Shown here piece by piece: positions 19,341 through 54,551 of a stretch of 64,000 nt of DNA (within the stretch, counting starts at the first letter, position 1; each line of letters opens with the position of its first letter). This DNA comes from a virus (lineage: Duplodnaviria; Caudoviricetes): the IMG/VR virus record IMGVR_UViG_3300027847_001698, one strand, 5' to 3'. The translations under genes were made by a program, and so were the position numbers. The notes under the pieces are model-generated. The model saw only the letters and a list, made by a program, of their open reading frames with translations, ran no database searches and was not told the DNA's origin.

Positions 19341-19937
19341 CTAGTCCTTGATTAAGGACAAAAACTCAGTTCTAGTCTGAGGTTGATTTTTAAATTTTCC
19401 TTTCATAGCTGAGGTTATCATTGAAGCATTTTGCTTCTTGACACCTCTACATATCATACAGAAATGCTGTGCTTCCATTATTACTCCGACACCATCTGGC
19501 TTTAAATACATGTCCATGGTCTCGGCAATGTCAACAGTCATTTTTTCCTGAATTTGTAATCTACTGGCAAATATATCAACAAGTCTTGCCATCTTAGATA
19601 ATCCTAATACTTTTCCGTTTGGAAGATAACCTATATGACATACCCCACTAAACGGTAGCATATGATGCTCACATATTGAAGTAAAATCAATATTTTTACA
19701 CATTACTATCTCGTCAGCGAGTTCTCCCTCACCTAAACCTTCTTGGAAGAATGTAGATAACACTGTAGAAATATCATGATTGTATCCAGCATACAATTCT
19801 ATCCATGATTTTACAACCCTGAATGGGGTATCAATCAATCCTTCTCTTGTTGGATTATCTCCAATAGATGCAAGAATTGATTTAACATTATCCATTGCTC
19901 CTGGAAACTTTGCTTCTACTTCTTCTTTAGTTATCAT
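19341..19937 (-). CDS. folE: GTP cyclohydrolase I
   Basis: REGLIDTPFRV, SICEHHMLPF, GLSKMARLV, RLQIQE, HFCMICRGV. Confidence 0.97.
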   Translation of the reverse strand: MITKEEVEAKFPGAMDNVKSILASIGDNPTREGLIDTPFRVVKSWIELYAGYNHDISTVLSTFFQEGLGEGELADEIVMCKNIDFTSICEHHMLPFSGVCHIGYLPNGKVLGLSKMARLVDIFASRLQIQEKMTVDIAETMDMYLKPDGVGVIMEAQHFCMICRGVKKQNASMITSAMKGKFKNQPQTRTEFLSLIKD

Positions 19938-22900: not shown

Positions 22901-22996
22901 TATATTAGAAACAAGACTGTTTTCCCAGTCTTTCTGTCTAAGATCAAATATATTATGTTTACTTAATATATAATCAGGTACACATAGATTTAACAT
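19937..22996 (-). CDS. rpoB: Multisubunit RNA polymerase beta-like subunit, set 1 (putative non-virion)
   Basis: RDIHPS...CPADT, LEHDDPTRLQMSSSQQRHA, GYNFEDAIVIS, GDKIGNRHGNKGII, SRMNIGQ, GGQRLGEME. Confidence 0.93.
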   Translation of the reverse strand: MLNLCVPDYILSKHNIFDLRQKDWENSLVSNITKMLQCGEQYGIRVSSISVERPEKVDRSELKQTISRILKISMVHGDNKTLDLEYEIPWLVDNHFFIGGNKKVSIFQLFDRPLIRRNDIIKLRTNIHNFTLTKKQRLRRPYFYYVTLFGKEVPFCYLVYAYLGEDKIKDRFGITKEDSLSTNVTIDYDLAQDIKDLIDSPSSKKRLLSQYFNRKEDVDIVNNVLLISEVDIFTKEFLTTPNVLEELISSLGDWDNDDLDYSNKRIRFSEQLVYSHLARDFYQMIVSLRQSKKNRFRNNSKVILNNINQSAIVQFDFSINPLSELAMLTRLSLSGPGGFEKGNVPPYLRDIHPSMKSHVCPADTGDRENCGTVQYLTPTIQLGNDLTFNKGEGDCRNSIAISHVPFLEHDDPTRLQMSSSQQRHAIMLENFDVPLVQSGVEGMYTKYTSFCFVASRDGTVVFKDDSVIVVQFDNKKCQAFNIGYKKLFLSIYDFYHVYFDIGHTFKKDQMIAESNYLKQGRLTVGKNLLTAVTIWHGYNFEDAIVISDRLVKDNELTSVHYLDLTFEVPPNKLLLNLGDDETAYKGIPNIGDVLTKGDIYAKIKTLTGINDSLDMIFDEPFEKVVTEDCVITDVKLFANKWNKEFPQYDTFVTSLIAQKNKDRTSMIDNLSTYLSQDQLGHFLESIAIDNTEKKRGTYKVKGGSIDGIRFEITAMYKRPIEVGDKIGNRHGNKGIISKIVPEHEMPRLENGQSADVVLNPLGVISRMNIGQLFELHMAMSVQDMRNIIVKKFEDKEEEEEIKEFILNYIKIIDSTKNKEYTHQMKLFLEAVSVEYIVNHIDSFYVIQPPYESTPVDKLSEAMDYTGTRMEYPCYDPYGDDEHNKDPSYFEQNIINEIAVGYQYFIKMNHISKDKIAHRGVGPYSSKTCQPLDGKNRKGGQRLGEMEVWAVAGHGAESNLWEFLTTKSDSIKKRNATISKMIQNDDMKLDENDDDVSQSIRLFQSELKTMGLDYEIKEEL

Positions 22997-25763: not shown

Positions 25764-26327
25764 TTATGAAGTTGATACACTAAATGATATTGAATTTATC
25801 TTATCTGCAATGATACCGTTAATGCTTTCTTTTAAATCTGAAGTTCTATTAGCTAGTGTGGCGTTTATAGCTGGAGCTAATGTATTATCGAATTCTTGTT
25901 TAATAAGTCTAATTAAATTTTCATCACAATATCGTTCAATTACATCAGTTATTATTGAATGATCTCTTTTAATAACTGCTTCAACTCCTTCCATGATAAC
26001 AGTAGATAGAATATCATTAGTTAACATGTTAGTAACTGAAACGTCTGCACATAGCATATCAAGATCACCATACTTCTCAACACTTTTAAACTTCCACCCT
26101 TTAGTCTGTCTATCATAACTCATTCGGCTATTGTACTTCGCAAACTGTTTCTTAAACTCCTCAATTCCAGTAATACCATAATCCTGTTCTAAGTCTGTAG
26201 ATATAATATGTAACTCTTTTAAGGTAAAACTATCCTGATTATCAAATTCTTCCGTGGCAGTTATAACATCGTTTATTAATGTTTCTATGTTATTAACTAC
26301 AGGAACTGAATTAATTTCATCTGACAT
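25764..26327 (-). CDS. Hypothetical acidic helical protein
   Basis: 187-aa ORF with upstream AAAGGAGAA. Confidence 0.7.
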   Translation of the reverse strand: MSDEINSVPVVNNIETLINDVITATEEFDNQDSFTLKELHIISTDLEQDYGITGIEEFKKQFAKYNSRMSYDRQTKGWKFKSVEKYGDLDMLCADVSVTNMLTNDILSTVIMEGVEAVIKRDHSIITDVIERYCDENLIRLIKQEFDNTLAPAINATLANRTSDLKESINGIIADKINSISFSVSTS

Positions 26328-27029
26328 TTATTTCTCCTTTAGTATATGTTTAAGAGTTTCAAAATGCTTATTATGCTCATATGGATTATCCATATTTACA
26401 TATCCTAACATCATCTTAGCTATATTTAAAGAATCCGGAGTTAAACACATTCGCTTAATAGCGGAATCCATGCAAAATTTATTATTTAGTGGACTTAAAT
26501 TGGGATGTACACCTGTACAATATAAGCCCCCTCTTAATGTTTTGTCAATAGAAATCTTAAACTCTGTGATTCCATAACCTAACTGCCTTAATTCATCTGG
26601 GTTTGTCCTGATTATTTTTCCATTGTACAGTATCGAATTAATCGGAATATAATCAACCCATATTATCCATTTATTATTAACAAGATATCCTTGTTTTAAA
26701 ATTTCATTTATGGCTTGACATCCTTCAGTGGTAGCGAAATAGGTTAATCTCTTTACATCTGCCATTATCCTAGTCAAACTTGAAGCCAATGAAACGTGTG
26801 CCTTAACTTTACGTGATACTATAAATTTTCTAATGTCCCTTAATACATCAGATAAATTGATTTGAATATCGCCTATTATAATCAACCCTGTCCTATCTTT
26901 TGATAATCTATATCCCGATTTTTGTTTATTTATTAAACATACTGAATACATATTATCTTCATCATAATGTTCCCAATTATTAATATCTGATAACGTTAAT
27001 AATTTTGATACTTCATCTAATATGGTCAC
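26328..27029 (-). CDS. Prokaryotic E2/UBC-like domain protein (module 2)
   Basis: HPNLSPLNNKFC (HPN...C E2 signature) followed by MMLGYVNMDNPY; aligns by eye with the E2 domain of 33916..36039. Confidence 0.6.
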   Translation of the reverse strand: MTILDEVSKLLTLSDINNWEHYDEDNMYSVCLINKQKSGYRLSKDRTGLIIIGDIQINLSDVLRDIRKFIVSRKVKAHVSLASSLTRIMADVKRLTYFATTEGCQAINEILKQGYLVNNKWIIWVDYIPINSILYNGKIIRTNPDELRQLGYGITEFKISIDKTLRGGLYCTGVHPNLSPLNNKFCMDSAIKRMCLTPDSLNIAKMMLGYVNMDNPYEHNKHFETLKHILKEK

Positions 27030-27304
27030 GCCGTTCCTGTTAATGGATTAACCGTGACCTCTAAATTGTTATCAAAATCTTTTCTGAACGTCAAAGCAAA
27101 CTTCTTTTGTGGGAATAATGTACATTCTGTTTTGACTTCAGCTTGTACTGTTTTAATAAAATCTAATATTGAAAATCTGGACCCGTCTACCTGTTTAGGT
27201 CTTTTAGAGGAATCAGATCTAATTGATATTTTCATATGTGGATTTTCATATATAAATCCACTTAATGCGTTTTCATTTTCTACTTGGTTAATTAATCGAT
27301 TCAT
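27026..27304 (-). CDS. Small protein between E1-like and E2-like genes; candidate beta-grasp/Ubl
   Basis: 92 aa; strand-strand-helix-strand pattern and C-terminal tail LEVTVNPLTGTA. The fold is inferred only. Confidence 0.3.
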   Translation of the reverse strand: MNRLINQVENENALSGFIYENPHMKISIRSDSSKRPKQVDGSRFSILDFIKTVQAEVKTECTLFPQKKFALTFRKDFDNNLEVTVNPLTGTA

Positions 27305-27851
27305 TTCTTTCTATCCTTTGTCCATCTTGTACATGTGCTCTAAGATTATAAACGTAGTAAGTATTAGGAAATAATAACTCTTTGTCTATTACATTACATA
27401 CTATACTTGTTGCCAAATCTACATATAAGAAATCTTTAGCTACAGAGTATTCGGAATAATCATCTGTAACTTTAGGGTCATCTCTGGTATCTATTATTAA
27501 AGTAGAACCATCTAGTGATATTCTTGCATGACTATTAATTGGTCTAGCCTTATCATCTCTACAATCTAAAATAATTCCTGTCTTATCTATATCCGTCTTA
27601 ATTTCTTTATGATGACAAACCAATTTTCCCAAATCTAATATTCCTAAACTTTCTATTAGGTCGGCTATTGCTACAACCTTTTCCACTCCTGCCATTGATG
27701 TATAAAATGGAGGTTCTACTACCCCATATGATATTACATCTTTGTCATAAATATGATAATCACGAAAAACTTTATTTCTCCAAAGTTTGAAGAATATATT
27801 TGAGCCAACTGTTCCACATCCAACTATCCGAACAATTTTAGTTTCATACAT
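27288..27851 (-). CDS. Short, degenerate ThiF/E1-like protein (module 2)
   Basis: IVGCGTVGS nucleotide-binding loop, YDKDVI, GVEKVVA, ILDCRDD; lacks the NLxR motif. Confidence 0.7.
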   Translation of the reverse strand: MYETKIVRIVGCGTVGSNIFFKLWRNKVFRDYHIYDKDVISYGVVEPPFYTSMAGVEKVVAIADLIESLGILDLGKLVCHHKEIKTDIDKTGIILDCRDDKARPINSHARISLDGSTLIIDTRDDPKVTDDYSEYSVAKDFLYVDLATSIVCNVIDKELLFPNTYYVYNLRAHVQDGQRIERNESIN

Positions 27852-28181
27852 TTAAATCTTAATTAAAAATCTACATACTTCTATGTCTTCAGTTTTATAT
27901 TCATATGGTTTTTCATCAACCACAGTTATATCTAATTCCGTAAATGCAGCTCTGGTATTTGATAGAATCTCTCTATTCACTTCAATAATACCTACATTGG
28001 TCGTTATTGATTCAAAGAATCCTCTATACTGGGGAGTAGTTGGTACACCAAATCCCAACACTGATATTTTCTTTTCTTTTAATCGTTTTACTAATGTATG
28101 AACCTTTCTAGTATCATTTCTAATTCTGTCATCTTCCTTAGTACTAAAAGTTGACTTTTTATCCTTTTTATCCGTTCTCAT
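27852..28181 (-). CDS. Hypothetical protein
   Basis: 109-aa ORF with a basic N-terminus, tightly coupled to its neighbours. Confidence 0.65.
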   Translation of the reverse strand: MRTDKKDKKSTFSTKEDDRIRNDTRKVHTLVKRLKEKKISVLGFGVPTTPQYRGFFESITTNVGIIEVNREILSNTRAAFTELDITVVDEKPYEYKTEDIEVCRFLIKI

Positions 28182-28717: not shown

Positions 28718-31234
28718 TTAAATACTCAGAACCACATCACTCTCAGCGTCTTGTGTATAAGAGTGTGTAATCAATGTAATGTTTTTATTGTTTGCTAACG
28801 CTTTTAAATTCTGACAAAAAGTAGAAGAATTAGCAGAATCAAGACTGTCTAATACTTCATCCAGTAAAATAATATTAAATGATTTATCATATAGATTTTC
28901 AACTAACTTTCGTAATACCATCATACAACAAACATCAATCTGACGTTTTTCCCCACCAGATAATAACTTATGACTATCTGCCCCTGTTTCTGTATTCAAT
29001 ACATTCACAGAAAATCTCTCTCTGATATCTCCACCTTTTGTTTCAGATAGGGTATCAAACGAGACTATAAATTTACCTGGTGCAATCTTTGTTAGTTCCT
29101 CACGAATTGTCTTATTCATAAAAGGAATAGATCCATCAATTAACATCGACGGTATTCCTTTATCAGAAAATGCAATTTTCCAAAACTTATAAACTTCCAG
29201 TTTTTTATTTCCCTTTTTTATAGAAGCGGCATAATTATTTTTTTCAACTGTCAATTCATTTAATTCACTCTTTACAGAATCTAATTTAGATTCATCTATA
29301 TCAGTATCTTCTTCCAACGTATAAAGCTCATTTCGATTAAAGTCTAAAGATGCTATAAGACGAACAATAGAAGCAGTCCTTCCTTCTATTTCAAGTTTAG
29401 ATTCTAACTGTTCAACTTTCTCTACTTGTATATTAAGCAAATCTGATTCAAGTGTATATTTGGATGATAGAAACTCATTTAATATTTCTTTAGACTCTGT
29501 TTTAGATTTAATATCTATTTCATCTTCTATCTTTATTTTAAATACTTCAAAATCAGATTTAAGTTTTTTCTTTTCAGATTCTATTTGAATAGACAACTTA
29601 GACTTGTTCTCTTGGCATTCATCCATTAGCATATCATATTTTTCATCAATAGCTTTATCGGTTTCTTTTCTGGCAACTATAATAATATCTAACTGTTGTG
29701 TAATATCTAATATACTTGTAGAATTATCTGTTTTCTTTTTATCTCCTGTAGCTAAGAGAGTACTAAGATCTTTCTCTACCTTCTCATTTTCATCTATGAG
29801 TTTTTGTTTATAATCAGCATATAATGTTTTGATGTTTAAGAATTCAGCCTTTATAGCTTCGATTCGATCAGTCTTTTCATTAATTAATTTCTCAATCAAT
29901 TCAGATTGTTCTTGTAAATGTTGTTTATGGCTATTGTCCTCTACCTTTTGATTACACATTAAACATGTATCAAAATCAATTTGGACTTGATGCCTTTTTT
30001 CATTTACTTCACCATTAAGAGCTTTAGCCTCTTGTTTAAGATCCTCTGACTTCTTTATAAGAGAATCAATTTGATCTTGAATGTCATATACATTAACTGA
30101 CTTATTCTTTCGTGCTTTTTCAATATCATATTGTTGACTTAAAAGAACCTTCCCTCTCTCCAATTCAATAAGATCAGATTTCAATTTAGATTCGTTATCA
30201 AACGATCCTTTAATAGAAGTTTGAGTCTCTTCCGCCTTTTGACTTGTCAAGATAGTTAATGTGTCAGCCAATGTTGTGAGCTTTTGTCCCAATGTTTCAC
30301 GGGTATTCGAGAAACTAGTGTCTAACTCATTTTTCATTTTAGACAAGATATCATCTTTTTCTCTTACTAGCTTACTGATAAGATTCTCTTGTTTCTTCTC
30401 TTTAGCTTCTTCCAATCCAAATAATTCATCTGACATTTTAACTATATCTACATCTATATGGACTAGTTTTTTATTTATAGAATCCAGATCTTTCTTTGTT
30501 TTATCTTCATCAAGATCGTTAAGATCCTTTTCCATTAACGGTATTCTAATAGTCAAATCTTTAATTCTATTAGCAAGATCATCTTTCTGTGCCTGAATAA
30601 ATGCAGATGTTTCAGTCAACAGAGTTTCTTTTTCTTCAAGTCTAACTTCTATTTTGTCAAACTCTCTACTCTGATTATCAACTTCTATAGTGAGAGTTTT
30701 AGAATCTTCGTCTATATATTCTTTATATCTTTTCCATTCCTCAAGTTGTAGGATAGATGAAAAAATTTGCTTTTGTTGAGAATCATTCAACGACGTAAAG
30801 AAATCCTTAACTTGCTGAGAAAAATAAATACTATTTAAAAAAACTTGTTTAGGAACTAAAATCTGCTCTATTCTCTTATATGTATCAGTTGTAGTTTTCC
30901 CTGAAATGTCAGTTCCATTCAGATACAAATACAACTTATTAGAATGTTTAGAATGTTTATAATAACGCTTTATTAGATATTCATCAGTGTCCACTAGAAA
31001 ATCTACTTCTACTTCGAGATTTTTCCCTTCCTTTTTATTTACTAAATCTGGAAGTTCAATTCCTTCTGCTGTTTTCCCATATAAGGCAATCATTAAAGCC
31101 ATAAAATAAGAAGACTTTCCTTTACCATTTGGTCCAACAATAGATACTAATTTATTATTAGGGAATTCTAATTCTGTTTCAATGTGACATCTAAAATTTA
31201 CTAACTTTACTTTATTAAATTGGATATTTTTCAT
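28718..31234 (-). CDS. sbcC: SbcC/Rad50 (T4 gp46-like) ABC ATPase
   Basis: GPNGKGKSS, long coiled coil with CLMC zinc hook, LSGGEKRQI, LLDEVLDSLD, ITH. Confidence 0.95.
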   Translation of the reverse strand: MKNIQFNKVKLVNFRCHIETELEFPNNKLVSIVGPNGKGKSSYFMALMIALYGKTAEGIELPDLVNKKEGKNLEVEVDFLVDTDEYLIKRYYKHSKHSNKLYLYLNGTDISGKTTTDTYKRIEQILVPKQVFLNSIYFSQQVKDFFTSLNDSQQKQIFSSILQLEEWKRYKEYIDEDSKTLTIEVDNQSREFDKIEVRLEEKETLLTETSAFIQAQKDDLANRIKDLTIRIPLMEKDLNDLDEDKTKKDLDSINKKLVHIDVDIVKMSDELFGLEEAKEKKQENLISKLVREKDDILSKMKNELDTSFSNTRETLGQKLTTLADTLTILTSQKAEETQTSIKGSFDNESKLKSDLIELERGKVLLSQQYDIEKARKNKSVNVYDIQDQIDSLIKKSEDLKQEAKALNGEVNEKRHQVQIDFDTCLMCNQKVEDNSHKQHLQEQSELIEKLINEKTDRIEAIKAEFLNIKTLYADYKQKLIDENEKVEKDLSTLLATGDKKKTDNSTSILDITQQLDIIIVARKETDKAIDEKYDMLMDECQENKSKLSIQIESEKKKLKSDFEVFKIKIEDEIDIKSKTESKEILNEFLSSKYTLESDLLNIQVEKVEQLESKLEIEGRTASIVRLIASLDFNRNELYTLEEDTDIDESKLDSVKSELNELTVEKNNYAASIKKGNKKLEVYKFWKIAFSDKGIPSMLIDGSIPFMNKTIREELTKIAPGKFIVSFDTLSETKGGDIRERFSVNVLNTETGADSHKLLSGGEKRQIDVCCMMVLRKLVENLYDKSFNIILLDEVLDSLDSANSSTFCQNLKALANNKNITLITHSYTQDAESDVVLSI

Positions 31235-32238
31235 TCTGCCCTAGATTCTATACTTTCACATGCTAATTTCATATACTCAGGATCAGTTATTTCCATTATT
31301 TCTGCATACTTTTCAATTTTCTCTTTCCAGTTCATTGAAATATCAATGCCACGATTAGAGATATCTATAATATCAGATTCATCAATAACTGAGATATTGT
31401 TATCATTTTCTTCAATTTTGTTTTTAGTCTTCTTTCTAATTCTTACGTTATGACCATCAGCTTTAGATATAGATGCTTCTTCTAATATTTTTTTTGTATC
31501 AGAATCGTCATCTAATATATACTCTCTATATTCGGTAAATCCACTCACCTTAATAGCTTCCACTTCTAATGTTTCAGTATCATAAATTAAAAAACGTTTA
31601 TCTTCATTTTTATCATTCCATGATGTATGAATAGGACTTCCCACATACATTAATCGGGTAGTTTCATTCTTTATTTCTTGAGGTTTATGATAATGACCCA
31701 ATAAAATAAGTTTGAATTTTGAAAGATGTCCCATGTTTAAATTAGACATAATCGATATCCCGGACTGAAGTTGCGCCTCTGATAGCCCAAAATGACCTAA
31801 CAGAATATCACAGGCTTCAGCCTCAAGGATATCGACTACCATAGTACTGGACCAGGGGACCAGTAATACGTTATCTAATTTAATTGTCTCTGTATAACAA
31901 CTAACATTTGAATATCCTTCAAACGCCGATATGCTTGAAGTTTTATGATCACCAATACTAGATAAATCATGATTTCCTGATATGATCAAGAACTCTAAAT
32001 CTGAATAATCTAATATTATATCTTTGAATGCATTCTGTGCGTCTGTAAAAATTATATTCTTGTCATGATTTAGATCGCCAAGAATATCAATATTTTTTAT
32101 CTTCTCTTTTCGTGCGTAATCACAAACCTTTCTTATCAATGAAATAAGATCGCTTAATCTTTTAGGTAGTCCATCTTCTTGGATATTAGAATCTCTATAC
32201 CAAGACAGATGTAAATCCGCTAAGGCAATTCTTTTCAT
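31231..32238 (-). CDS. sbcD: SbcD/Mre11 (T4 gp47-like) nuclease
   Basis: ADLHL, ILGDLNH, SGNHD, GHF, LGHYHKPQ, YVGSP. Confidence 0.93.
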   Translation of the reverse strand: MKRIALADLHLSWYRDSNIQEDGLPKRLSDLISLIRKVCDYARKEKIKNIDILGDLNHDKNIIFTDAQNAFKDIILDYSDLEFLIISGNHDLSSIGDHKTSSISAFEGYSNVSCYTETIKLDNVLLVPWSSTMVVDILEAEACDILLGHFGLSEAQLQSGISIMSNLNMGHLSKFKLILLGHYHKPQEIKNETTRLMYVGSPIHTSWNDKNEDKRFLIYDTETLEVEAIKVSGFTEYREYILDDDSDTKKILEEASISKADGHNVRIRKKTKNKIEENDNNISVIDESDIIDISNRGIDISMNWKEKIEKYAEIMEITDPEYMKLACESIESRAE

Positions 32239-32294: not shown

Positions 32295-33161
32295 TTACAA
32301 CAGTGTTAGAATCTCAGTGTCATCGTCATCATCTGCACCGTGTTGTATTCCCGCAGAATTTACAGCCTCTTCTTGGCTAATGACATCATGATCCATCAAT
32401 AATACATAATCTTGCAAACAAGCACTTCCATCTTCCATTGATTCCATTGCTTGTTCTAATCTTTCTCTCAACATATCAGCGGGATCTACAATAGGAATGT
32501 TCATTCCTAGAAAATCTTCACGGTTTCCTACCATTCCTGTCTGATGCTTTACTTGGCCATGGGAATTATAGTTATAATGTCCAGTATGAACAACTGCTTT
32601 TTGTTGATAGACCTTTTTACTAACTTTCTCAAGATCAAGATCAAACTTTTTAGTATTTATAATATTAATATCCAACGGTAGTTGAATTCTACCAACTGGA
32701 CTATTAATATTAATTATACCTGAATGAATAATTCTATTCACAAACAATAGAGAAAATTCATGATTAACATTGATATACTCATCATCGGTGCCTGAGAATT
32801 TTGTACAACCAGAAGGATGTCTATGAATTACTCCATTGAACCCCGCTGGTGCTTCTTCTTTAAAATCTATAGTTGCAGCAGTTACTTCTTGTTCAGGAAG
32901 CATCCACTTATTTTCCAGCATTAATATGCCATCGACAACCTTACCCTTTAAATACAATGCAAATTCAACAGAAGAATCTGGAAGATCATATTGGATTTGT
33001 AACATGACTTCCTGTAAATCACTTGGAATTACGACATCTACACTGTTGATTATTTGTAGAGCAGGATTTTCATTTTTCCAAACTACTTCCCCCGAACTCT
33101 TTTTTATTTTCATGTCTGCTTTAGACGTATCTACTGATTCATCCTTTATGGTCGTTAGCAT
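32295..33161 (-). CDS. JAB/MPN (JAMM) metallo-isopeptidase
   Basis: Glu in VEFALY plus HRHPSGCTKFSGTD, an exact H-x-H-x7-S-x2-D match. Confidence 0.88.
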   Translation of the reverse strand: MLTTIKDESVDTSKADMKIKKSSGEVVWKNENPALQIINSVDVVIPSDLQEVMLQIQYDLPDSSVEFALYLKGKVVDGILMLENKWMLPEQEVTAATIDFKEEAPAGFNGVIHRHPSGCTKFSGTDDEYINVNHEFSLLFVNRIIHSGIININSPVGRIQLPLDINIINTKKFDLDLEKVSKKVYQQKAVVHTGHYNYNSHGQVKHQTGMVGNREDFLGMNIPIVDPADMLRERLEQAMESMEDGSACLQDYVLLMDHDVISQEEAVNSAGIQHGADDDDDTEILTLL

Positions 33162-33909
33162 TGTACACTTCCTCTGTTACCGGTTGTTGATCTACATTCT
33201 GGCCCAAATAAATTCCTTCTAATAATCGTCCTGTATCAAATGTTATAAGTTTATTAAATAAGTTATCTTTATCATTGCATGAAAAACTTCCATCGTCAAT
33301 TAATGAGTATTTTGGCATTAGAATGTGATTACATACCAAATTTGCAACTAATTGAGCAGAGCAAACAAAAGAAGGAACTATATCATAATTCCCCCGTGCA
33401 CTCGTACCCATTACAGTTGTATGTCTTGGATTTCCGTCTATTGTAACAGACAATCCATCATAACCTAATTTCCAAACCTTTGTATGTTCTGAAAACTGCT
33501 TTATATCTTTAAAGATATTATCTCTACAATCTATAACTACCTCTGGGTAACTCCCCTTCCCCTTAAGTACTTCCAATGAGTTTTCATCATACTTTTCATT
33601 ATATATAACTATATCAATATCAATTCTTCTTTCAAGGATAAGCTCTAATACTACATCTGTTTTATTTCTTCCAATATCACATATTCTAAATAACGTTCTA
33701 TTCAGATTAGTATTTTCAATTGTATCCGAATCGTACATAACTAGTTTCTTAATTTGGCCAGTTAACGCCAAATTAAGAGCAACCCATGAACCTATTCCGC
33801 CAAGTCCAATTACTAGTGCACAATTATATTCTCTAAGATTTAATGATCGTTGTCTGTCACGTACTTCTTCTCCCCGATCATTAACTATATTATAAATTGA
33901 TTGTGTCAT
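33139..33909 (-). CDS. ThiF/MoeB/E1-like adenylating enzyme (module 1)
   Basis: VIGLGGIGS, YDSDTIENTNLNRTLF, DIGRNKT, VIDCRDN. Confidence 0.92.
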   Translation of the reverse strand: MTQSIYNIVNDRGEEVRDRQRSLNLREYNCALVIGLGGIGSWVALNLALTGQIKKLVMYDSDTIENTNLNRTLFRICDIGRNKTDVVLELILERRIDIDIVIYNEKYDENSLEVLKGKGSYPEVVIDCRDNIFKDIKQFSEHTKVWKLGYDGLSVTIDGNPRHTTVMGTSARGNYDIVPSFVCSAQLVANLVCNHILMPKYSLIDDGSFSCNDKDNLFNKLITFDTGRLLEGIYLGQNVDQQPVTEEVYNANDHKG

Positions 33910-33915: not shown

Positions 33916-36039
33916 TCACTCGTTTGTTGAGTTTGTTGAATATCTAATGTCCGGTGAATTATCTATATATTGTATACAATCTGACGCGGATACTATTTTA
34001 TCCTTTATATTCTTATATGCCTCCTTTTCCCAATCTTTAGGTATTATGTCAGATTCTTTAGTCTTCTTTTTGGGTGGAGTTAATAACAATCCAAACTTTT
34101 TCCTTACTGTTTCTGAGAGAAATCCCCATGCCCTACAAATGACATCTCCACCTAATAATGAAAGATTCATGATCACCTTTTCAAAAGTTTCAGGATCATT
34201 AAAAAGCATTGGTCGGGTATATGAATTTTTACAATAGAAATATAAAGGTTTATCACTATCGTGGGAACCATCAGGCAAAAATACACCTATAACAGTTACA
34301 CCATTAGGATGTACCCAAGTTAATCTTCTATCAGAGTTTAAGATGAAAGATGATGAAACAGTTTCGGCATTACGCATTTGATCTAAAATTCGTATATATA
34401 CAGATAATTCTTCAACATCAATTTTATCATCTATAGCCTCTTTAATTACGTCTACATCTATTAATTTGCCGTCCTTAATAATTTCAACTTCATCTTTTCC
34501 ATTTATTGTTCTTGAGGGAGACAGCCCTCTATTATCATCCTTTTCATCATCTATTATTAAATCTCCTGCACCAATAGCAATCATTTTAGATTTAGATGAT
34601 TTTTTAGATACTTTAAGAAATTCTGATTCTGATTTGCATTTAACCTTTAATATTTTGTGATAATACGATTCATTATAAGCACTATCATAATTTAGAATCT
34701 GTAATAACGATTCCATTTTTATTAAATGCTCTTCAATTTTTTCCGTGGGTCCAGAAAATTTAATATTTCCTAAATCACCTAAGCATACTGAACCATCAGA
34801 AGATACATTTGGATGGGTGGATTCTGTAAAAGAAAATCCATCTCCATTAATATATAACCATTTTACTCTAAACATTCTTAACTCTTTAGGAATTATTTTA
34901 CAAACACCATCTCTAAAAAATCGATCAGGTAATATATCTATCTTCTTTTTCCATAACAAATTAGATCTATAATTACTACTAAATCGTTCATGGGTAGCTA
35001 CTTCCCATCCATATTTAGTTAACAGACCAGATATAGTCAATCCTCTATGAAACGATTGTTGTGAGCTGTCTCGATTTTCATTTGAAGCTCGTTCTAATAC
35101 TTTGGTTAATAAACTTGCATATATTTCAGATTTCCCTGATTGATAGATTGTGTCCCACTCTGCGGTAGCCATAGTGCGTTTTAATTCTTTCAAAATCCCT
35201 TCGGAATCTAAAGTAAAGTCTGCATCTGATGGGGAATATTTACATTCCTCTAATCTCTTTATAAGTTTACATATAGATTCATCTTTTCCGTCAGCTTCCC
35301 AATGTTTAATATCTATATCATGAAGTCTATTATGAACGAATGTAATTCGATCAAGAATGTTTTCTAGTAATACATTAACCTTTTCTACATCTCTTGATCG
35401 TCCACTTCTCATCAAATATCTTAATACTGGCCATTTTATATAAGTGGTTCCATCCACACACATAAACCCAACTAAAACTGAATTAGTTCCAACAAAGAAG
35501 ACCTCTGATACTAAACTATCTTTGACATCACAAATATCTTGTAATAATCTTGAATTTACAACTGAAGTAAGATTTGCAAATCCTGGATTTCTAAATCTCA
35601 TATTTGGACATATATTGACACATAATTTTCTAAATGTTACATCGGAATCATTTAAAGGAGTTCCTAAATATTTAGAAAATGACGTAGCCATACTTGCATG
35701 TGAAACTCTAGGATTACATGTAATATATTTTAAAAGATCACTAAGTCCAAAGTTTGTTATAACTAACTTGTGATTCATCTTTAATGACTTACCATATTCA
35801 TCCAAGGTTAGCTGTTCGTCATAAACTAGACTATATGAATTCAACCTATGGGTGTCACCTGGATCGTCAGATATGACATCTCTTACTACTACATTATTTA
35901 CCAAATCTAAATATTTATCATTTACCAAAAGTTTAGAAAGACATTTATTTAGCTTTTCTATAAATCTTCGTTCAAATGTATAATCTCTATGGTTATCTGG
36001 GGTAAACAAACGAGAAAGGGTTTCTTGTGTTCTGCTCAT
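33916..36039 (-). CDS. Large multidomain protein containing a prokaryotic E2/UBC-like domain (module 1)
   Basis: STHPNVSSDGSVCLGDL (Cys codon 34783-34785) followed by LLQILNYDSAY; preceded by a coiled-coil-like segment. Confidence 0.75.
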   Translation of the reverse strand: MSRTQETLSRLFTPDNHRDYTFERRFIEKLNKCLSKLLVNDKYLDLVNNVVVRDVISDDPGDTHRLNSYSLVYDEQLTLDEYGKSLKMNHKLVITNFGLSDLLKYITCNPRVSHASMATSFSKYLGTPLNDSDVTFRKLCVNICPNMRFRNPGFANLTSVVNSRLLQDICDVKDSLVSEVFFVGTNSVLVGFMCVDGTTYIKWPVLRYLMRSGRSRDVEKVNVLLENILDRITFVHNRLHDIDIKHWEADGKDESICKLIKRLEECKYSPSDADFTLDSEGILKELKRTMATAEWDTIYQSGKSEIYASLLTKVLERASNENRDSSQQSFHRGLTISGLLTKYGWEVATHERFSSNYRSNLLWKKKIDILPDRFFRDGVCKIIPKELRMFRVKWLYINGDGFSFTESTHPNVSSDGSVCLGDLGNIKFSGPTEKIEEHLIKMESLLQILNYDSAYNESYYHKILKVKCKSESEFLKVSKKSSKSKMIAIGAGDLIIDDEKDDNRGLSPSRTINGKDEVEIIKDGKLIDVDVIKEAIDDKIDVEELSVYIRILDQMRNAETVSSSFILNSDRRLTWVHPNGVTVIGVFLPDGSHDSDKPLYFYCKNSYTRPMLFNDPETFEKVIMNLSLLGGDVICRAWGFLSETVRKKFGLLLTPPKKKTKESDIIPKDWEKEAYKNIKDKIVSASDCIQYIDNSPDIRYSTNSTNE

Positions 36040-36046: not shown

Positions 36047-36080
36047 AAAAAAGGTGGCTAGAGATTTATCCCTAACCACC
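36047..36080 (-). terminator. Intrinsic terminator between the Ubl-fusion gene and the E2 gene
   Basis: Minus strand GGTGGTTAGGGA-TAAA-TCTCTAGCCACC-TTTTTTATTT: 12-bp stem (two G-U pairs), 4-nt loop, U tract. Confidence 0.85.
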
Positions 36081-36101
36081 CTCCTCTATTTATATAATTG
36101 C

Positions 36102-36710
36102 TTACGCAGCTTTATTTACTTTGCCGACTTTCAACGAAAGAATACGACCTTCACCCAGAACGATATCAGTCTTACCGGAAATGTCGGTATTAGTTTTGAC
36201 ATCAGAAACAGCAAACGAGGCCATTCCTTGTTCAGTGGCATAAGTACTAATCGCGGAGAGGGTGTCATTTGCGTCCTCAACCTTGAACTTTGGTTCGCCG
36301 TTGATTACCAAAAGATACGCACCGTCAGCGAGAGACACCTTATAACCTTTCGGAAATGCCTTGTTTGGCGGGCAGTGAACATGAACACGTCCACTCTTTT
36401 TCTTTGCTGTAAACCCAGACAATGTATCAGCAGTCAATGAAGCAGGAGAACCAACCTTGACCATGGGCTTCTTAGATGCTTTGATAGTTGTCACTCCGCT
36501 GGTTCCACTTCCTGCAGAATACGTCACAAATCGACCACCATTATAAACAGAAAGCGTTCCATTTTCTACTAATGTGGTCAGTTCTTCCTTCAGCGATGCT
36601 GATGCCTTTGATGTAAAAAGTACATCCTTGGATATTCTGGTTGCGGTTGAGTTTTCGTTTTTCTTGACATACAACACGACTTTATTACTTACACTTTTTG
36701 TTAGTGACAT
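36102..36710 (-). CDS. Winged-helix + basic linker + C-terminal ubiquitin-like (beta-grasp) domain fusion, ending NKAA
   Basis: Residues ~5-60 fit a wHTH pattern. The last ~72 residues (AYLLVING.PKFKVED.helix.SFAV...DIVLGEG.RILSLKVGKV-NKAA) fit beta-grasp topology with a free small-residue tail. The gene directly precedes E2-E1-JAB. Confidence 0.55.
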   Translation of the reverse strand: MSLTKSVSNKVVLYVKKNENSTATRISKDVLFTSKASASLKEELTTLVENGTLSVYNGGRFVTYSAGSGTSGVTTIKASKKPMVKVGSPASLTADTLSGFTAKKKSGRVHVHCPPNKAFPKGYKVSLADGAYLLVINGEPKFKVEDANDTLSAISTYATEQGMASFAVSDVKTNTDISGKTDIVLGEGRILSLKVGKVNKAA

Positions 36711-36744
36711 AAGGGTATAATTCCTTGGTTAAAAATAAAGAATC

Positions 36745-38193
36745 CTATTTTAATATCTTTTCTTCTATTTGCCAATTCTTTTCTGTATAGAATCCAATCC
36801 GGTACTTTGCCCGATTGATCAAATTATCATCTCCTATATCGACTAAATCTATTACGACTGGTTGTTGTTTATCTGGATGAGATCTAACAACCCGCCCAAC
36901 AGCCTGTTCTAAATTAGAAACAGGAGTAGCCAATATTAAACAATCTAATATTTCTTTATTAGTACCGTCTCTAGCACTTCCATAAGTACTAAAAACTAAT
37001 CTACGCTGTAGATGAGCATCACGCTCATTCTTCGATCTTGGGATGAAGAAACCTACTTCTTCTTTGTTTTTACATGCCTGCGAGGCATGATCTAAAATTT
37101 TAATTCTATCTGCCAAAAATAATAAGTGTCTGGTCGACTTAGACACTTCCATGACCAATTTTTTTATAGCTTTTTTATACGGCTCGGACTTGACTAACAA
37201 ACTCAAATATCTAGCCGTGTCAAAAAACGGTTTAATATTGTTATCCCGATCGTACTTTGTAAGATGTGTAATGTAATTTTTATGATTTTTCATAACACCA
37301 TGATCAAATTTCAATAAGATCACTTTCGGTGCCATAGTGTCTATACCCGAGGAAACCGGTACGTATACCTGTCCAAGATGTTTATATATTATATCTGTAT
37401 TTCCATCTAATCTACTTGGAGTAGCAGACAAACCATAGATTCGTTTAGATGGAATCCAAATCGAAGTTCTAGAAAACTGTTCAGCACTTACCGAAGTATG
37501 ACATTCATCCCATATAGCAATTCCAATTTGTGCATCATTCAATACCTTCTTCATTAGTTCGGGGGGCTTCCGCTTAACCAAACTACAAAATGTTTGAACA
37601 GTTGTGATTATTATATCCTTTTGCAAATCTTCCTCAAATGAAGAAGACCTAAGCCTAGAGATATTATCTTCCGATATATCTGTATGCTCTAAAAACTTAT
37701 CGACCCATTGACTAGCTAAAGAGTCCTTATGTACAAATATTATTGATTTTTTTCCAATTGTACATATCGAGTGGATGCTTACTACTGTCTTTCCTTCTCC
37801 AGGACTTAAACATAGTATACCATTAGTATTCGTTTCAAACCACTTGATCGACTCTTTCTGTCTTTCATTTCTTGGGACGACCTTGGAGGTTATACTTATA
37901 TCCTTCCCTACAATACTTCTATCTGTTATCTGAAACATTGCAGGGAGTTCATAAAAACGTGGAATCATTAATTCGCGAGTTGACTTATCTGTATCGTAAT
38001 ATTTTCTAATATCAACATTTGGAGCATCACTATCTGCCGTTTGTTGATATGACCTGGATTGTCTAGTCAAATCTCGAATTATTCTTGCAAACCATTCCTT
38101 GTCCTTATTGGAATCAACTGGAATTCGAATTGCAGAATCTTTTATGAGAGTTTGACTACATCCCATATTGCGCCCACGAATTAGGAGTTTCAA
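36745..38193 (-). CDS. SF2 helicase, UvsW/XPB-like
   Basis: LSPGEGKT, IWDECH, GLSATP, STY, EQAVGRVVR. Confidence 0.9.
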   Translation of the reverse strand: MKLLIRGRNMGCSQTLIKDSAIRIPVDSNKDKEWFARIIRDLTRQSRSYQQTADSDAPNVDIRKYYDTDKSTRELMIPRFYELPAMFQITDRSIVGKDISITSKVVPRNERQKESIKWFETNTNGILCLSPGEGKTVVSIHSICTIGKKSIIFVHKDSLASQWVDKFLEHTDISEDNISRLRSSSFEEDLQKDIIITTVQTFCSLVKRKPPELMKKVLNDAQIGIAIWDECHTSVSAEQFSRTSIWIPSKRIYGLSATPSRLDGNTDIIYKHLGQVYVPVSSGIDTMAPKVILLKFDHGVMKNHKNYITHLTKYDRDNNIKPFFDTARYLSLLVKSEPYKKAIKKLVMEVSKSTRHLLFLADRIKILDHASQACKNKEEVGFFIPRSKNERDAHLQRRLVFSTYGSARDGTNKEILDCLILATPVSNLEQAVGRVVRSHPDKQQPVVIDLVDIGDDNLINRAKYRIGFYTEKNWQIEEKILK

Positions 38194-38602
38194 ACAACTT
38201 TACATTGATTAATTCTAATCCTGAAGTTGGCGGTAAATTGTCGTTGACTTGTTCAAAGCACCACCTTGATAATTCTTCTGCTGTTGGGATAAATGGAACT
38301 TTTATAAGATTCCATGTGTCCTTAAATGGTTCAAACATTTCAGCTATCTCTTTGTCATTCTCGTAATAAATAAATCCATGATCTAATACATCATGTACAT
38401 ATGTTGTCATTACATCTTTCAAATCCCCAAAATCAATAACCATTCCTTGTTCAGATGAGCCTGATTCGCTATTTAGATATCCTGAAACTGTACATTCTAG
38501 TCTATATCTATGACCATGGGGATTTCTACATTTACTTTTATGATTAGGGACTCTGTGACCTGCATCAAATTCTATAATTTTAGTTATTCTAATCATCTTC
38601 AC
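38156..38602 (-). CDS. queD: 6-carboxy-5,6,7,8-tetrahydropterin synthase QueD
   Basis: FDAGHRV...CRNPHGHRY, VIDFGDLK, LDHGF, PTAEEL, FETPNSWA. Confidence 0.95.
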   Translation of the reverse strand: MKMIRITKIIEFDAGHRVPNHKSKCRNPHGHRYRLECTVSGYLNSESGSSEQGMVIDFGDLKDVMTTYVHDVLDHGFIYYENDKEIAEMFEPFKDTWNLIKVPFIPTAEELSRWCFEQVNDNLPPTSGLELINVKLFETPNSWAQYGM

Positions 38603-42753: not shown

Positions 42754-43806
42754 TTAAGTAACTAAATCTGCATTTGCAAGATATGTCTGACCATCATGAT
42801 CAACAATCTGTTCGCTGAAATCACCACTCATCATTGGACAAGTCCAATTACAACCTTTACAATAATGTTTATAGTCATACTTGATAGCATCTAGTAACTT
42901 GTCAGTGAAAACTCCGTCTGATGAAATGATATCATCTACATCTTTAATTAATGGAGATGCAACTCCCTTAACTCTAAGACACAATCTAAAACTTCCATCT
43001 GGTTCTATACTAACATTATGGAGATCTTTATTTAATGTACATTTCATCTTACTAGGGAGATATTTATATAACTCATCTAGTAATCCGGGAATATGTACTA
43101 GTAATTCCCCACTATCTGCTCCTGCTTTCAACTCATCAAAAATATCTCTGATCTCTTGATCCTGTGGGAGTAGAACTTCTGCTCCAACATTTGAGAAATC
43201 ATAATAAGGAGTTTTTTGATCATCTACAGCAGTTATTGAACTATAGATTCCTTTATCTGTTAATTCCTTTACCATCGTCAAGATGTAGGGAATTGATTCT
43301 TTCATTATGGTGATCTCTGCAACTACATCATCCGATATGCCATCTTTTTTCATAACAGCAAGATTCTCTAATCCCCATCTAGACTTCTTTGCAATATCAT
43401 CATTTCTACCAGGAATGAATGCTACAGGATCAACTGATGAAGTGAATCCTTTAAACTTTCCATACTTCTCATATACCTGATAAATCTTCTTTTTAGCTGC
43501 TGGAGTATTATTTGATATGACCGTGTAATTCATTTTGGTTTCATTAAGATATTTAATGATTCCTGGAAATGATTTTACAATTGTTGGCTCTCCGCCATAA
43601 ATTATGAGAAATACATGAGGATTATTTGCTCTAAGTCTTTCGAATATAGGAATCCATCCATCTGCATCTAATTCAGCTTTATGATAAGCTCTCATTAAAG
43701 GATATTCTTCTGGCATATCCTCATAATCTTTTACAATATTACAATACGAACATGCCAAGTTACAATGTCTTGTAATAAGGATATTTGCTATCCATACTTT
43801 ATTCAT
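42754..43806 (-). CDS. Radical SAM protein with Cys-rich C-terminus
   Basis: CNLACSYC (CxxxCxxC), YGGEP, ISNN, C-terminal C...C...CKGCNWTC (SPASM/Twitch-like). Confidence 0.88.
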   Translation of the reverse strand: MNKVWIANILITRHCNLACSYCNIVKDYEDMPEEYPLMRAYHKAELDADGWIPIFERLRANNPHVFLIIYGGEPTIVKSFPGIIKYLNETKMNYTVISNNTPAAKKKIYQVYEKYGKFKGFTSSVDPVAFIPGRNDDIAKKSRWGLENLAVMKKDGISDDVVAEITIMKESIPYILTMVKELTDKGIYSSITAVDDQKTPYYDFSNVGAEVLLPQDQEIRDIFDELKAGADSGELLVHIPGLLDELYKYLPSKMKCTLNKDLHNVSIEPDGSFRLCLRVKGVASPLIKDVDDIISSDGVFTDKLLDAIKYDYKHYCKGCNWTCPMMSGDFSEQIVDHDGQTYLANADLVT

Positions 43807-54122: not shown

Positions 54123-54125
54123 GTC

Positions 54126-54551
54126 TTACTTCAATTTCTTTAATGTAACAAGTCCTTTCTTTTTACTAGCAGTAAGACTCCATTTGCCTTCCAATATCTC
54201 AGACGTAAATACGAAACGTTCTGATCCTGCATTCACATTTCCTTTCAGATTATAGCTTCCCTGTCTTGTCTTTCCTGCAAACTTAATCCGTTGTTTAAAT
54301 GTTTGAGGTTTAGAAGCTGGCATTATACGGCCCATAATCTCATCCCCCTTTTTTAACAGTTCAATTGGTGTTTGAGATATGAGCATATATGACGCCCATC
54401 CGTCTGCAAGATTGGTTCCATCTGAAACTGAATTAAAATATTTAAAATGTAAAGCTAACTCTTTCCCACTATTTGAAAAGGATATTGCTAATATATTATC
54501 CATCTTTGCTTCAAACAGAATACGTTTAATGTAAAAAAATTTATTATCCAT
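54126..54551 (-). CDS. Hypothetical protein, putative virion component
   Basis: 141 aa; N-terminal ILFEAK. Confidence 0.65.
   Translation of the reverse strand: MDNKFFYIKRILFEAKMDNILAISFSNSGKELALHFKYFNSVSDGTNLADGWASYMLISQTPIELLKKGDEIMGRIMPASKPQTFKQRIKFAGKTRQGSYNLKGNVNAGSERFVFTSEILEGKWSLTASKKKGLVTLKKLK

Follow-up and report, generated by a model that had tools for sequence, protein, structure and literature searches.

The open reading frame at positions 36,102–36,710 (minus strand) of the window, the whole 64,000-nucleotide stretch of viral DNA analysed here, raises the question of whether a phage could own a protein modifier of the ubiquitin type. The source of the DNA is an uncultured marine jumbo phage, and the product of the gene, hereafter the tag, is a 202-residue protein in which a winged helix precedes a ubiquitin-like (Ubl) domain. 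We describe the gene and its predicted domains, the C-terminal tail and the enzymes encoded beside it, and weigh other functions that these features could serve.

The gene and its predicted domains

The open reading frame list, an AlphaFold2 (AF2) model and about 47 homologue clusters, none of them annotated, identify a real and conserved gene. The homologues were reached by an exhaustive homology search, which was needed here; a word-indexed search returned solely the query protein. The tag protein matched no family in Pfam, PHROGs, PADLOC or NCBIfam, neither the module nor the tag nor the E2 had a DNA or protein match in the INPHARED phage collection, and scanning IMG/VR viral contigs with E2, P0002 and E1 gave no relatives. 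Contigs from the RNA libraries of four seawater studies span the tag ORF; these are assemblies found via this stretch, so that the near absence of cover over the E2 gene and the contig ends at 36,084–36,123, close to the tag stop codon, can neither rank expression nor prove termination. A terminator-like hairpin with a T run (36,047–36,086, minus strand; 18 pairs, loop of 4) lies between the tag stop codon and the E2 start, and two terminator-like sites were counted in 1 kb against 0.6 expected. Upstream of the gene, a weak sigma-70-like promoter match (36,747–36,775, minus strand; 10 of 12 positions) was set aside as being at chance level, since two sites were seen where shuffling leads one to expect 3.0. 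We also rejected the 76-residue P0037 as a member consisting of the Ubl only, as it is a truncated gene call whose reading frame continues open as far as the edge of the contig. P0033, P0036, P0038 and P0042 are likewise short and may be truncated, and for these reasons a form of the family devoid of the winged helix is not established.

The structural description is based on an AF2 model built from an alignment of the full-length tag (pLDDT 87); a single-sequence AF2 model (pLDDT 33) was discarded. The model divides the protein into a winged helix (residues 3–67), a disordered linker (68–95), a beta extension (96–130) and a beta-grasp (131–202). The initial annotation had read everything between the two terminal domains as a Lys/Ser/Thr-rich linker, and this holds for its first part only. 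Residues 68–95 (36,426–36,509, minus strand), with many Lys, Ser, Thr and Gly, are predicted to be disordered (pLDDT 47–48 in the blocks of residues 71–90) and vary in length from 15 to 59 residues among homologues, whereas residues 96–130 (36,321–36,425, minus strand) appear in both the model and the alignment as an ordered three-strand extension ahead of the beta-grasp, with strands at 100–105, 108–113 and 123–127 (pLDDT above 90) and a nearly invariant G99.

The last 72 residues (131–202; 36,105–36,320, minus strand), which had been marked out beforehand as a C-terminal domain (36,102–36,320) ending in Ala-Ala, are indeed predicted to fold as a beta-grasp and not as something else. The elements follow the order b-b-a-b-(b)-3/10-b with pLDDT above 90 over residues 131–197, and a five-residue tail hangs free after the last strand, where pLDDT drops to 68 over the last residues. 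Foldseek matched the PB1 domain of NBR1 (probability 0.99–1.00, over query residues 131–197 to 131–202), the Ubl of parkin and the bacterial Ubl 8tyx_A (TM by target 0.53); the E-values of the C-domain matches were weak (0.01–0.2) and their TM by target ranged from 0.43 to 0.53. A profile of the C-domain matched no PDB sequence at E ≤ 10, and the 46 C-domains compared with Pfam gave scattered weak matches only. Winged-helix matches took up the PDB and BFVD structure-search lists, which are uninformative on residues 96–202; a shape search of the ESM Atlas with the AF2 model likewise retrieved winged-helix clusters only, and a feature search of the same resource, whose own tag model is poor (pLDDT 0.51), gave no usable match.

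The N-terminal domain (36,510–36,704, minus strand) is predicted, from the AF2 model and its conserved residues, to be a winged helix with the order H1-b1-H2-H3-b2-wing-b3. Its a1-b1-a2-a3-b2-b3 arrangement over some 65 residues is that of the Z-alpha fold, which is found in Z-alpha as well as Z-beta domains of ADAR1, ZBP1, PKZ, poxvirus E3 and CyHV-3 ORF112. Of the wHTH/Z-alpha-like pattern noticed at the outset the fold therefore stands, but the Z-alpha signature does not. Asn173, Tyr177 and Trp195 (ADAR1 numbering) are completely conserved in Z-alpha domains (PMC11120146). When the family profile was aligned with ADAR1 Z-alpha by HMMER, Lys169 fell on the invariant K35 and Asn173 on the conserved K41, with the wing outside the alignment, and Tyr177 fell on column 45, which is variable and often acidic (D 10, A 9, Q 6, E 5) and is Thr in the protein studied. 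Whereas Z-alpha depends on Tyr177 and has a Pro-Pro-x-Trp wing, the phage domain has T45, a Lys at the position of Asn173 in most members and an S-G-R wing without Pro-Pro; its conserved Y64 is the aromatic residue of strand 3. Given the replacement of the Z-DNA-binding Tyr by a variable, often acidic column, Z-DNA binding by this domain appears improbable on sequence grounds. The domain stands nearer to Z-beta, which does not bind Z-DNA, than to Z-alpha, and ADAR1 Z-beta is its closest sequence match.

Nor is it established that the domain binds nucleic acids of any kind, as had been expected, or that conjugation would tether targets to the phage nucleoid. On helix 3, the exposed face carries mainly acidic or variable residues, with D/E in 32–54% at positions 42, 45, 46, 49 and 50, and the net charge of the domain runs from -6 to +6 across the family, with a mean of +1.2. 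The possible backbone contacts are limited to K35, K41 (K/R in 66% of the family) and the conserved R60 (78% for its column). The studied protein had no Pfam match at E ≤ 1; the 47 N-domains matched DUF7342 in 11 cases and, weakly, HTH_24 (9), TrmB (6), MarR_2 (6) and z-alpha (5), and structure searches with the N-domain returned many winged helices of transcription factors.

The C-terminal tail and the neighbouring enzyme genes

We then considered the tail N199-K200-A201-A202 (36,105–36,116, minus strand), where adenylation and conjugation are predicted to occur. The terminal xKAA/xKAG, to which the initial annotation had attached importance, is kept in sequence and position as [N/D][K/R][A/G][A/G], found at the C-terminus or at most three residues from it in 46 of 49 members and absent in the other three. 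The motif forms the exact C-terminus in 30 members (25 AA, 4 AG and 1 GA), and a further 16, all three GG members among them, have one to three residues beyond it; counting the extended members, the endings are AA in 33, AG in 9, GG in 3 and GA in 1. In the homologue alignment N199 is invariant (nearly so over the 49 members) and K200 and A201 are at least 90% conserved, and position 198 is His in 33 of the 49 members and Val in the phage protein studied. The family thus has the flexible tail with a conserved small residue, at the very end or before a short extension, that is looked for in a Ubl; the terminal Gly, present as Gly-Gly in most Ubls, is replaced by Ala-Ala in the studied protein. 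The extensions of the 16 members, among them ends such as ...KGGSL, ...KAGK and ...KAAC, follow the pattern of Ubl precursors that are trimmed by a peptidase or DUB, as is BilA, whose Gly97-Ala98 is trimmed by BilC. Substrates of Cap2 have Gly or Ala as their last residue, and conjugation is documented for a CD-NTase ending in Ala; in E. coli cGAS, a change from Gly to Ala lowered conjugation (Jenson et al., 2023, PMC10097602). By analogy with the Ala-ended Cap2 substrate, a C-terminal Ala may well be accepted by an E1, as had been suggested.

The tag gene is directly upstream of the enzyme genes, and the order is tag, E2-like, E1 and JAB, all on the minus strand. The E2-like gene (33,916–36,039) encodes 707 residues with a UBC-like core around H409-P-N ... 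C419; Pfam UQ_con matches residues 405–465 with an E-value of 2.9e-4, under the gathering score, and HPNV, VC.G.L, NYDS and the C419 that follows HPN are invariant in four homologues. The candidate metallopeptidase of the JAB/JAMM type (32,295–33,161; 288 residues) has no Pfam match at E ≤ 1 and is recognised by a JAMM motif, E66 ... H113-x-H115-x7-S123-x2-D126, invariant in three homologues. The tag, the E2 and the JAB gave no match in PADLOC or NCBIfam. The E1 gene (33,139–33,909) encodes a minimal ThiF-type protein of 256 residues (Pfam ThiF, 5.3e-22), whose best PADLOC matches are generic CBASS Cap2 E1-E2 models (6.9e-13) and in which R18-Q19, the GxGGxG motif, NLNR, DCRD and Y174 are invariant in 46 sequences; the E1 family numbers 156 proteins at E ≤ 1e-10. 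The sole invariant Cys of these sequences is that of DCRD, beside the metal-binding Asp, and the Y174 loop has no conserved Cys; a minimal E1 lacking a cysteine in this loop counts against a modifier role for the tag.

The same arrangement recurs in six other metagenomic contigs, which carry a tag-sized gene, a large E2-like gene and a ThiF E1, with a JAB-like gene in four of the six. In all neighbourhoods seen, the tag gene comes before those for the E2-like protein and the E1, and its homologue ends in HNKAA or HNKAAA in the contigs with readable DNA. The four-gene module is followed by Mre11/SbcC-like genes and the tag locus belongs to a replication/recombination block. Within 7 kb of the tag there are also a PTPS/QueD-like gene (38,156–38,602) and a radical-SAM gene (42,754–43,806). 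Elsewhere, the same phage has a second E1/E2 module with a separate 92-residue, Ala-ended ORF (27,026–27,304), to which the tag C-domain showed no similarity in a profile comparison.

The tag gene is therefore linked, as a Ubl gene would be, to genes for an E1, an E2 and a deconjugating peptidase. Because it adjoins them, the 202-residue protein is probably the tag of a protein-tagging system owned by the phage, that is, the Ubl modifier of a conjugation module composed of tag, E2, E1 and JAB. A predicted complex of the E1 with the C-domain of the tag gives weak support to this role. Its median score was 0.54 (runs of 0.54, 0.60 and 0.51) against 0.00 for the best control, and the runs shared at least 87% of contacts with a partner pLDDT of at least 83. 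Of 80 solved complexes 58 came up to the mark applied, as did 2 of 110 mismatched pairs; these counts hold only roughly, since the alignments used here were our own. At scores of 0.60 or lower the mark was reached by only 7 of the 80 solved complexes and by both of the passing mismatches. Because solved structures exist for E1-Ubl complexes of related families, resemblance to these may account for the pass.

Alternative readings and a proposed mechanism

In a different reading, which we hold to be rather unlikely, the protein would serve as a regulator or adaptor of the winged-helix type and use its beta-grasp non-covalently, in docking or oligomerisation, like PB1 or the Ubls of shuttle factors, and the E1, E2 and JAB would have another substrate or be their own. 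The best fold matches of residues 131–202 are to PB1, a type of domain that mediates non-covalent interactions, the matches of the N-domain to transcription factors fit a regulator, and the small Ala-ended ORF of the second E1/E2 module also speaks for this reading. However, an adaptor gives no reason for an exposed [N/D][K/R][A/G][A/G] end with its short extensions in nearly all members, nor for the constant place of the tag ahead of the E2-like and E1 genes, and the four-gene module contains no other Ubl-like ORF.

There is still less to recommend a carrier like ThiS, MoaD or TtuB, with a C-terminus that the E1 would adenylate, and perhaps thiocarboxylate, for the modification of a small molecule or nucleic acid. 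The best NCBIfam and Pfam matches of the E1 are ThiF and MoeB adenylyltransferases, and the PTPS/QueD-like and radical-SAM genes would suit such a pathway, but the eukaryote-like HPN...C core of the E2 and the JAMM peptidase are absent from sulfur-carrier pathways, and neither the E1 nor the adjacent genes showed a rhodanese or desulfurase domain. Moreover, the Pfam models of ThiS and MoaD matched neither the tag nor any of the 46 C-domains, the end is Ala-Ala and not Gly-Gly, and the winged helix and long linker would be left unexplained. An intein-like Asn cyclisation at the conserved His-Asn, which would make the tail a self-cleavage site that frees the last three residues, is scarcely credible: Pfam Intein_splicing matched 6 of 46 C-domains weakly (best E 0.0048) and the His at position 198 and the Asn after it are common to most members, yet the matches span only a strand-plus-HN stretch resembling intein block G, the domain is predicted as a 72-residue helix-on-sheet beta-grasp and not a HINT fold, Val precedes Asn in the studied protein, and the residues after Asn are conserved although a leaving peptide would not need them.

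If the tag is the modifier of the module, the ThiF-type E1 would bind its beta-grasp and adenylate the carboxylate of the terminal Ala, or of Gly in some relatives. The activated tag would then pass to Cys419 of the E2-like protein, directly or via an E1 intermediate, and be attached to target proteins at their lysines. With no E3 seen, the choice of targets probably falls to the large regions on the N- and C-terminal sides of the E2 protein. The JAMM peptidase would trim the one to three extra C-terminal residues carried by about a third of the members and would also reverse conjugation. Since the winged helix is N-terminal to the beta-grasp, it would stay on the conjugate and add a binding module to the target, which may contact the nucleic-acid backbone through K35, K41 and R60 or else bind a partner protein. 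Because the gene is in a replication/recombination block, always beside Mre11/SbcC-like genes, we would place the action of the tag at DNA transactions of the phage or the host, early or mid infection. A bolder proposal, for which we see an outside chance, is that marine jumbo phages of one clade have a eukaryote-like ubiquitination cascade of their own, in which tagging would covalently give phage or host proteins a Z-domain-like winged helix as a module for binding nucleic acid or a partner, or would form chains via the invariant Lys35. Being always linked to Mre11/SbcC genes, the module would target the machinery of replication and recombination, in a SUMO-like control of DNA transactions that a bacterial virus invented or captured, maybe with Ala-terminal chemistry and a Tyr-dependent minimal E1.

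Comparison with known conjugation systems

Among the known systems, type II Bil consists of the Ubl BilA, the E2 BilB, the JAB DUB BilC and the E1 BilD (Chambers et al., 10.1101/2023.09.26.559546; Hor et al., 2024). In Bil as in the phage module, four separate genes encode the Ubl, the E2 with its catalytic Cys (putative in the phage), the JAB/JAMM peptidase and the E1, and there is no E3; they are further alike in a single beta-grasp Ubl, which in some members bears a variable N-terminal domain, and in the trimming of the Ubl by the DUB in some members (predicted for the phage), which exposes the reactive end. In contrast, Bil lies in a defence island of the host and the phage module is encoded by the virus in the different order Ubl-E2-E1-JAB. 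The reactive end of BilA is a universally conserved Gly, whereas the tag family has AA, AG, GA or GG, and the phage module differs as well in its 256-residue minimal ThiF E1 without an inserted Cys domain and in an E2 core contained within a 600–750-residue protein. Unlike Bil, the phage module is matched by no PADLOC or NCBIfam model for a defence Ubl, E2 or DUB. The N-domains catalogued for Bil and Bub Ubls are N/G-rich, coiled-coil, DUF1508 or extra beta-grasp domains (PMC11601603), and that of the tag is a winged helix.

Bub (6E/DUF6527; Ye et al., PMC11601596) shares with the phage module an E1 in which the crossover-loop Cys is absent and a Tyr is invariant (Y370 of BubCD, Y174 here), and a JAB peptidase that makes the mature Ubl end, in the phage putatively. 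On the other hand, the Bub E2 uses Ser where the phage E2 has Cys after HPN, and the Bub Ubl ends in Gly where the tag ends in Ala-Ala. Two further traits of Bub, the protease BubE (DUF6527) and the fusion of Ubl to E2 or of E2 to E1, were not seen in the phage module; no DUF6527 match was obtained among the scanned neighbours. In type II CBASS with Cap2 and Cap3, an E1/E2 enzyme activates and conjugates a protein through its terminal Gly or Ala, and a JAB peptidase reverses the reaction (Jenson et al., 2023, PMC10097602); no other precedent for an Ala terminus is documented. There, however, a CD-NTase without a beta-grasp is conjugated and E1 and E2 are fused, whereas the phage has a beta-grasp Ubl and separate enzymes. 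A phage-borne relative in form is the TAPI Ubl of lambda and T1 with the JAB-containing TAPK (Iyer, Burroughs and Aravind, 2006, PMC1779556), likewise a phage beta-grasp with a conserved small C-terminal residue and a link to a JAB. TAPI belongs to tail-assembly clusters that lack both E1 and E2, and it carries its extra domain on the C-terminal side of the Ubl, whereas the tag is found with replication/recombination genes and a full E1/E2 set and its winged helix is N-terminal.

We found no description in the literature of a phage-encoded E1/E2/Ubl cascade or of a winged-helix-Ubl fusion, and such a system is unmentioned in a comparative survey of 224 jumbo phages from 2021 and in a 2026 review of jumbo-phage biology. 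Complete prokaryotic E1/E2/Ubl/DUB cascades have so far been characterised as anti-phage defences of the host, namely Bil, Bub and type II CBASS; here the same cascade logic is carried by a virus, in a block of replication genes. The architecture of the tag, with a winged helix, a linker and an extended beta-grasp, is new, and its putative reactive end is Ala-Ala in most of the roughly 47 clusters. If conjugation does take place, the system would be small and tractable, with an E1 of only 256 residues, and trypsin cleavage at the conserved Lys200 would leave an Ala-Ala remnant suited to mapping targets by mass spectrometry. The known range of working Ubl termini and of domains fused to Ubls would increase, and phages would be seen to turn ubiquitin-like tagging to offensive ends or to the control of their own processes.

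Predicted fold and C-terminus of the tag

The minus-strand ORF at 36102-36710 encodes 202 residues ending in V-N-K-A-A, as the initial annotation had described. This protein, the tag, is probably the modifier of a ubiquitin-like system, the best explanation of a body of evidence that consists wholly of prediction and comparative genomics. An AlphaFold2 model built with a 47-sequence alignment (mean pLDDT 87.3) recovered the two domains proposed for it: a winged helix at residues 5-66 (helix, short strand, helix, helix, beta hairpin) and, at residues 132-197, a strand, strand, 14-residue helix, strand, short strand, 3-10 turn and strand, a predicted order that is the order of ubiquitin. The boundary assigned to the C-terminal domain was exact. 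The stretch between the domains, taken for a linker, is only partly so, because residues 68-95 have the low confidence of a linker, whereas residues 96-130 form an ordered, conserved extension with three high-confidence strands at 100-127. Beyond the last strand five residues follow with falling confidence. Over residues 131-202, Foldseek ranked the NBR1 PB1 beta-grasp first among Swiss-Prot models (probability 0.99-1.00); its matches among PDB entries included PB1 domains, the parkin Ubl and a bacterial Ubl from a Ubl-deubiquitinase complex (for this last, 8tyx_A, 82 columns and a TM by target of 0.53). The E-values were weak (0.01-0.2), since the matched domains are short and the query has two domains.

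Neither curated families (Pfam, PHROGs, PADLOC, NCBIfam) nor a word-indexed homology search matched the tag to any protein besides itself. When 1.84 billion cluster representatives were scanned exhaustively with HMMER, 50 matches came up, about 47 of them true relatives at 25-46% identity, most being 185-215 aa long and alignable end to end. An apparent Ubl-only member was rejected because its gene call is cut short where the contig stops.

Across 32 aligned sequences N199 never varies, and conservation at K200 and A201 is 90% or higher. When 49 members were counted, two of them from E1-anchored contigs, the motif [N/D][K/R][A/G][A/G] stood at the end or at most three residues from it in 46, so that the conservation expected of the terminal residues was found; the exact end is AA in 25, AG in 4 and GA in 1, and 16 members end in a short extension of 1-3 residues (A, C, K, F, I, R, M, SL or LTV), among them all three GG members. 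Two small residues conserved in this way, followed in some members by a ragged extension, read as the signature of a modifier with a peptidase-exposed end. In a type II Bil system, a deubiquitinase-type peptidase removes Ala98 and thereby exposes Gly97. An Ala terminus has one documented precedent, the CD-NTases of type II CBASS, which end in Gly or Ala (PMC10097602). The Ala-ended Enterobacter cloacae CD-NTase is conjugated, which bears out the earlier remark that Cap2-type systems tolerate small terminal residues, and E. coli cGAS still formed the Cap2 thioester when Gly was mutated to Ala (PMC10097602).

The neighboring E2, E1 and JAB genes

The next three genes downstream, on the same strand, code for proteins of 707 aa (33916-36039), 256 aa (33139-33909) and 288 aa (32295-33161). 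The first matches Pfam UQ_con weakly (residues 405-465, E 2.9e-4) in the region of H-P-N ... C; four E2-like proteins share, without variation, H409-P-N-V, V418-C419, G421, L423 and an N-Y-D-S motif. The second belongs to the ThiF family (Pfam 5.3e-22); its family of 156 proteins (E up to 1e-10) keeps the Arg-Gln finger, glycine loop, N-L-N-R and D-C-R-D, and in alignment A4 (46 sequences) Tyr174 is invariant in the loop N-G-Y-x-x-T-P-S-F, which has no conserved Cys, the sole invariant Cys being that of D-C-R-D. The third matches the JAMM signature exactly (E ... HxH-x7-S-xx-D), and three peptidase homologues keep these residues unchanged.

Two contigs with a 46%-identical tag show a helicase, the tag and then a large protein with H-P-N-V ... 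V-C-L-G-D-L; on the related contig L003 the large protein has 748 aa and a ThiF-like gene comes next. With E1 homologues as anchors, four long contigs were read, up to 141 kb, and all carry a 199-258-aa gene, a 586-643-aa gene, ThiF and a 279-316-aa gene, continuing with an Mre11-like phosphoesterase and an SbcC-like ATPase. In both contigs read as DNA (two of the four) a tag homologue comes first, ending in HNKAA or HNKAAA. By these comparisons the operon is conserved.

In all five neighborhoods that reach that far, an Mre11-like gene lies 3' of the module and an SbcC/Rad50-like gene follows it, immediately or past one or two small ORFs (window 28718-32238; related contigs L005 7819-11863 and L006 7625-11210). 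The genes upstream of the tag differ (helicase, DUF2786/DUF7168, others). A second, reduced module at 25764-28181 adjoins one RNA-polymerase gene pair and comprises a 187-aa ThiF-like gene (27288-27851), a 92-aa ORF ending in L-T-G-T-A (27026-27304) and a 233-aa protein with G-V-H-P-N ... F-C (26328-27029); profile comparison found no similarity between the 92-aa ORF and the tag C-domain.

The E1-tag complex was modeled using ESMFold2 with custom alignments, in three runs and with three controls. The median score was 0.54 (0.54, 0.60, 0.51) against 0.00 for the best control, with contact agreement of at least 87% and partner pLDDT of at least 83. Of 80 solved complexes, 58 pass the score mark, as do 2 of 110 mismatched pairs; the range from the mark to 0.60 holds 7 of the 80 solved complexes and both passing mismatched pairs. 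The prediction thus lends weak support to the pairing, and the pass may stem from likeness rather than from this pair, because E1-Ubl complexes of related families are already solved.

A terminator-like hairpin with a T run (36047-36086) lies between the tag stop codon and the E2 start, and a promoter-like match upstream of the tag was no better than chance. RNA-library contigs from four different seawater studies cover the tag ORF at 99% identity or more (matches within 36084-36800), one of 1207 nt extending into the upstream helicase gene; they show that the tag sequence is present in RNA libraries, nothing more.

What the winged helix might bind

A profile of the N-domain from 47 members was compared with PDB sequences. 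The best genuine match was ADAR1 Z-beta (E 6.4e-4), with PKZ Z-alpha at 0.05 and MarR proteins at 0.002-0.02; higher-ranked protein A rows were discounted as a repeated single-helix artefact. Seven homologues (P0003, P0010, P0011, P0022, P0027, P0028, P0032) carry two winged helices in tandem ahead of the linker and beta-grasp, which recalls the pairing of Z domains in ADAR1 and ZBP1.

Nucleic-acid binding, on which the proposed tethering of conjugates depends, has roughly an even chance or a little less. Lys35, Lys41 and the wing Arg60 could be phosphate-backbone contacts; Asp or Glu occupies the exposed helix-3 positions 42, 45, 46, 49 and 50 in 32-54% of members, and the net charge of the domain ranges from -6 to +6 (mean +1.2). 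Alternatively, the domain may bind protein, as the winged helices of cullin WHB, RPA32C and ESCRT-II do. Being invariant, Lys35 would also fit the role of a chain acceptor.

Binding of Z-DNA is unlikely. In the alignment with ADAR1 Z-alpha, Lys169 (of T-P-K-K) pairs with Lys35, Asn173 with a column holding Lys or Arg in 66% of the family, and Tyr177 with a variable, often acidic column (Thr45 in the window's protein). All Z-alpha domains keep Tyr177, Asn173 and Trp195, and Z-beta, with Ile in place of the Tyr, does not bind Z-DNA (PMC11120146). Since Tyr177 and Asn173 are not kept, the Z-alpha-like pattern first suggested holds as a Z-domain likeness of shape, and weakly of sequence, and fails as a Z-alpha assignment.

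Known systems and the phage carrier

The module follows the logic of Bil, in which Ubl, E2, JAB and E1 each have their own gene and an E3 is absent; it differs in being carried by a phage, in gene order, in its minimal E1 and in an E2 core embedded in a large protein. Defence-system models (PADLOC, NCBIfam) did not match the tag, E2 or JAB protein. The N-terminal types catalogued for Bil/Bub Ubls are N/G-rich tails, coiled coils, tandem DUF1508 and extra beta-grasps, and a winged helix is absent from them (PMC11601603). The E1, with its invariant Tyr and Cys-less loop, recalls the Tyr-dependent, Cys-less Bub E1 (PMC11601596); however, the phage E2 keeps Cys as nucleophile and the DUF6527 protease is missing, so membership of Bub was rejected.

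The IMG/VR record is 193.5 kb long (completeness estimate 61%). The window encodes a T4-type large terminase, topoisomerase II, ligase, helicases, the Mre11/SbcC-like pair and two separate sets of large multisubunit RNA-polymerase beta/beta' genes (19937-25749 and 49923-59665), and the carrier is therefore a large tailed phage, probably a jumbo phage. Its DNA is found again in many seawater metagenomes. The 1390-aa beta' has a weak, below-threshold Intein_splicing match (residues 871-1140, E 4.9e-4). On related contig L002 (179-3948) a topoisomerase II ATPase/Toprim gene is interrupted, with a 611-aa product (weak intein-splicing match), a 511-aa DUF7487 protein and a separate 151-aa GyrB C-terminal piece in that order. 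Near the module, a PTPS/QueD-like gene (38156-38602) and a radical-SAM gene (42754-43806) may belong to a pathway for nucleotide modification of the 7-deazaguanine type; on one related contig a Macro-domain gene adjoins the PTPS gene.

Among the papers searched, none described a phage-encoded E1/E2/Ubl cascade, and neither a 224-genome jumbo-phage survey nor a 2026 jumbo-phage review mentions one. Tail assembly protein I, a phage Ubl known from earlier work, is without E1 or E2 (PMC1779556), whereas the tag is accompanied by both genes. The tag system is well suited to direct biochemical testing, and would be a known kind of ubiquitin-like system met in an unexpected carrier, a phage.
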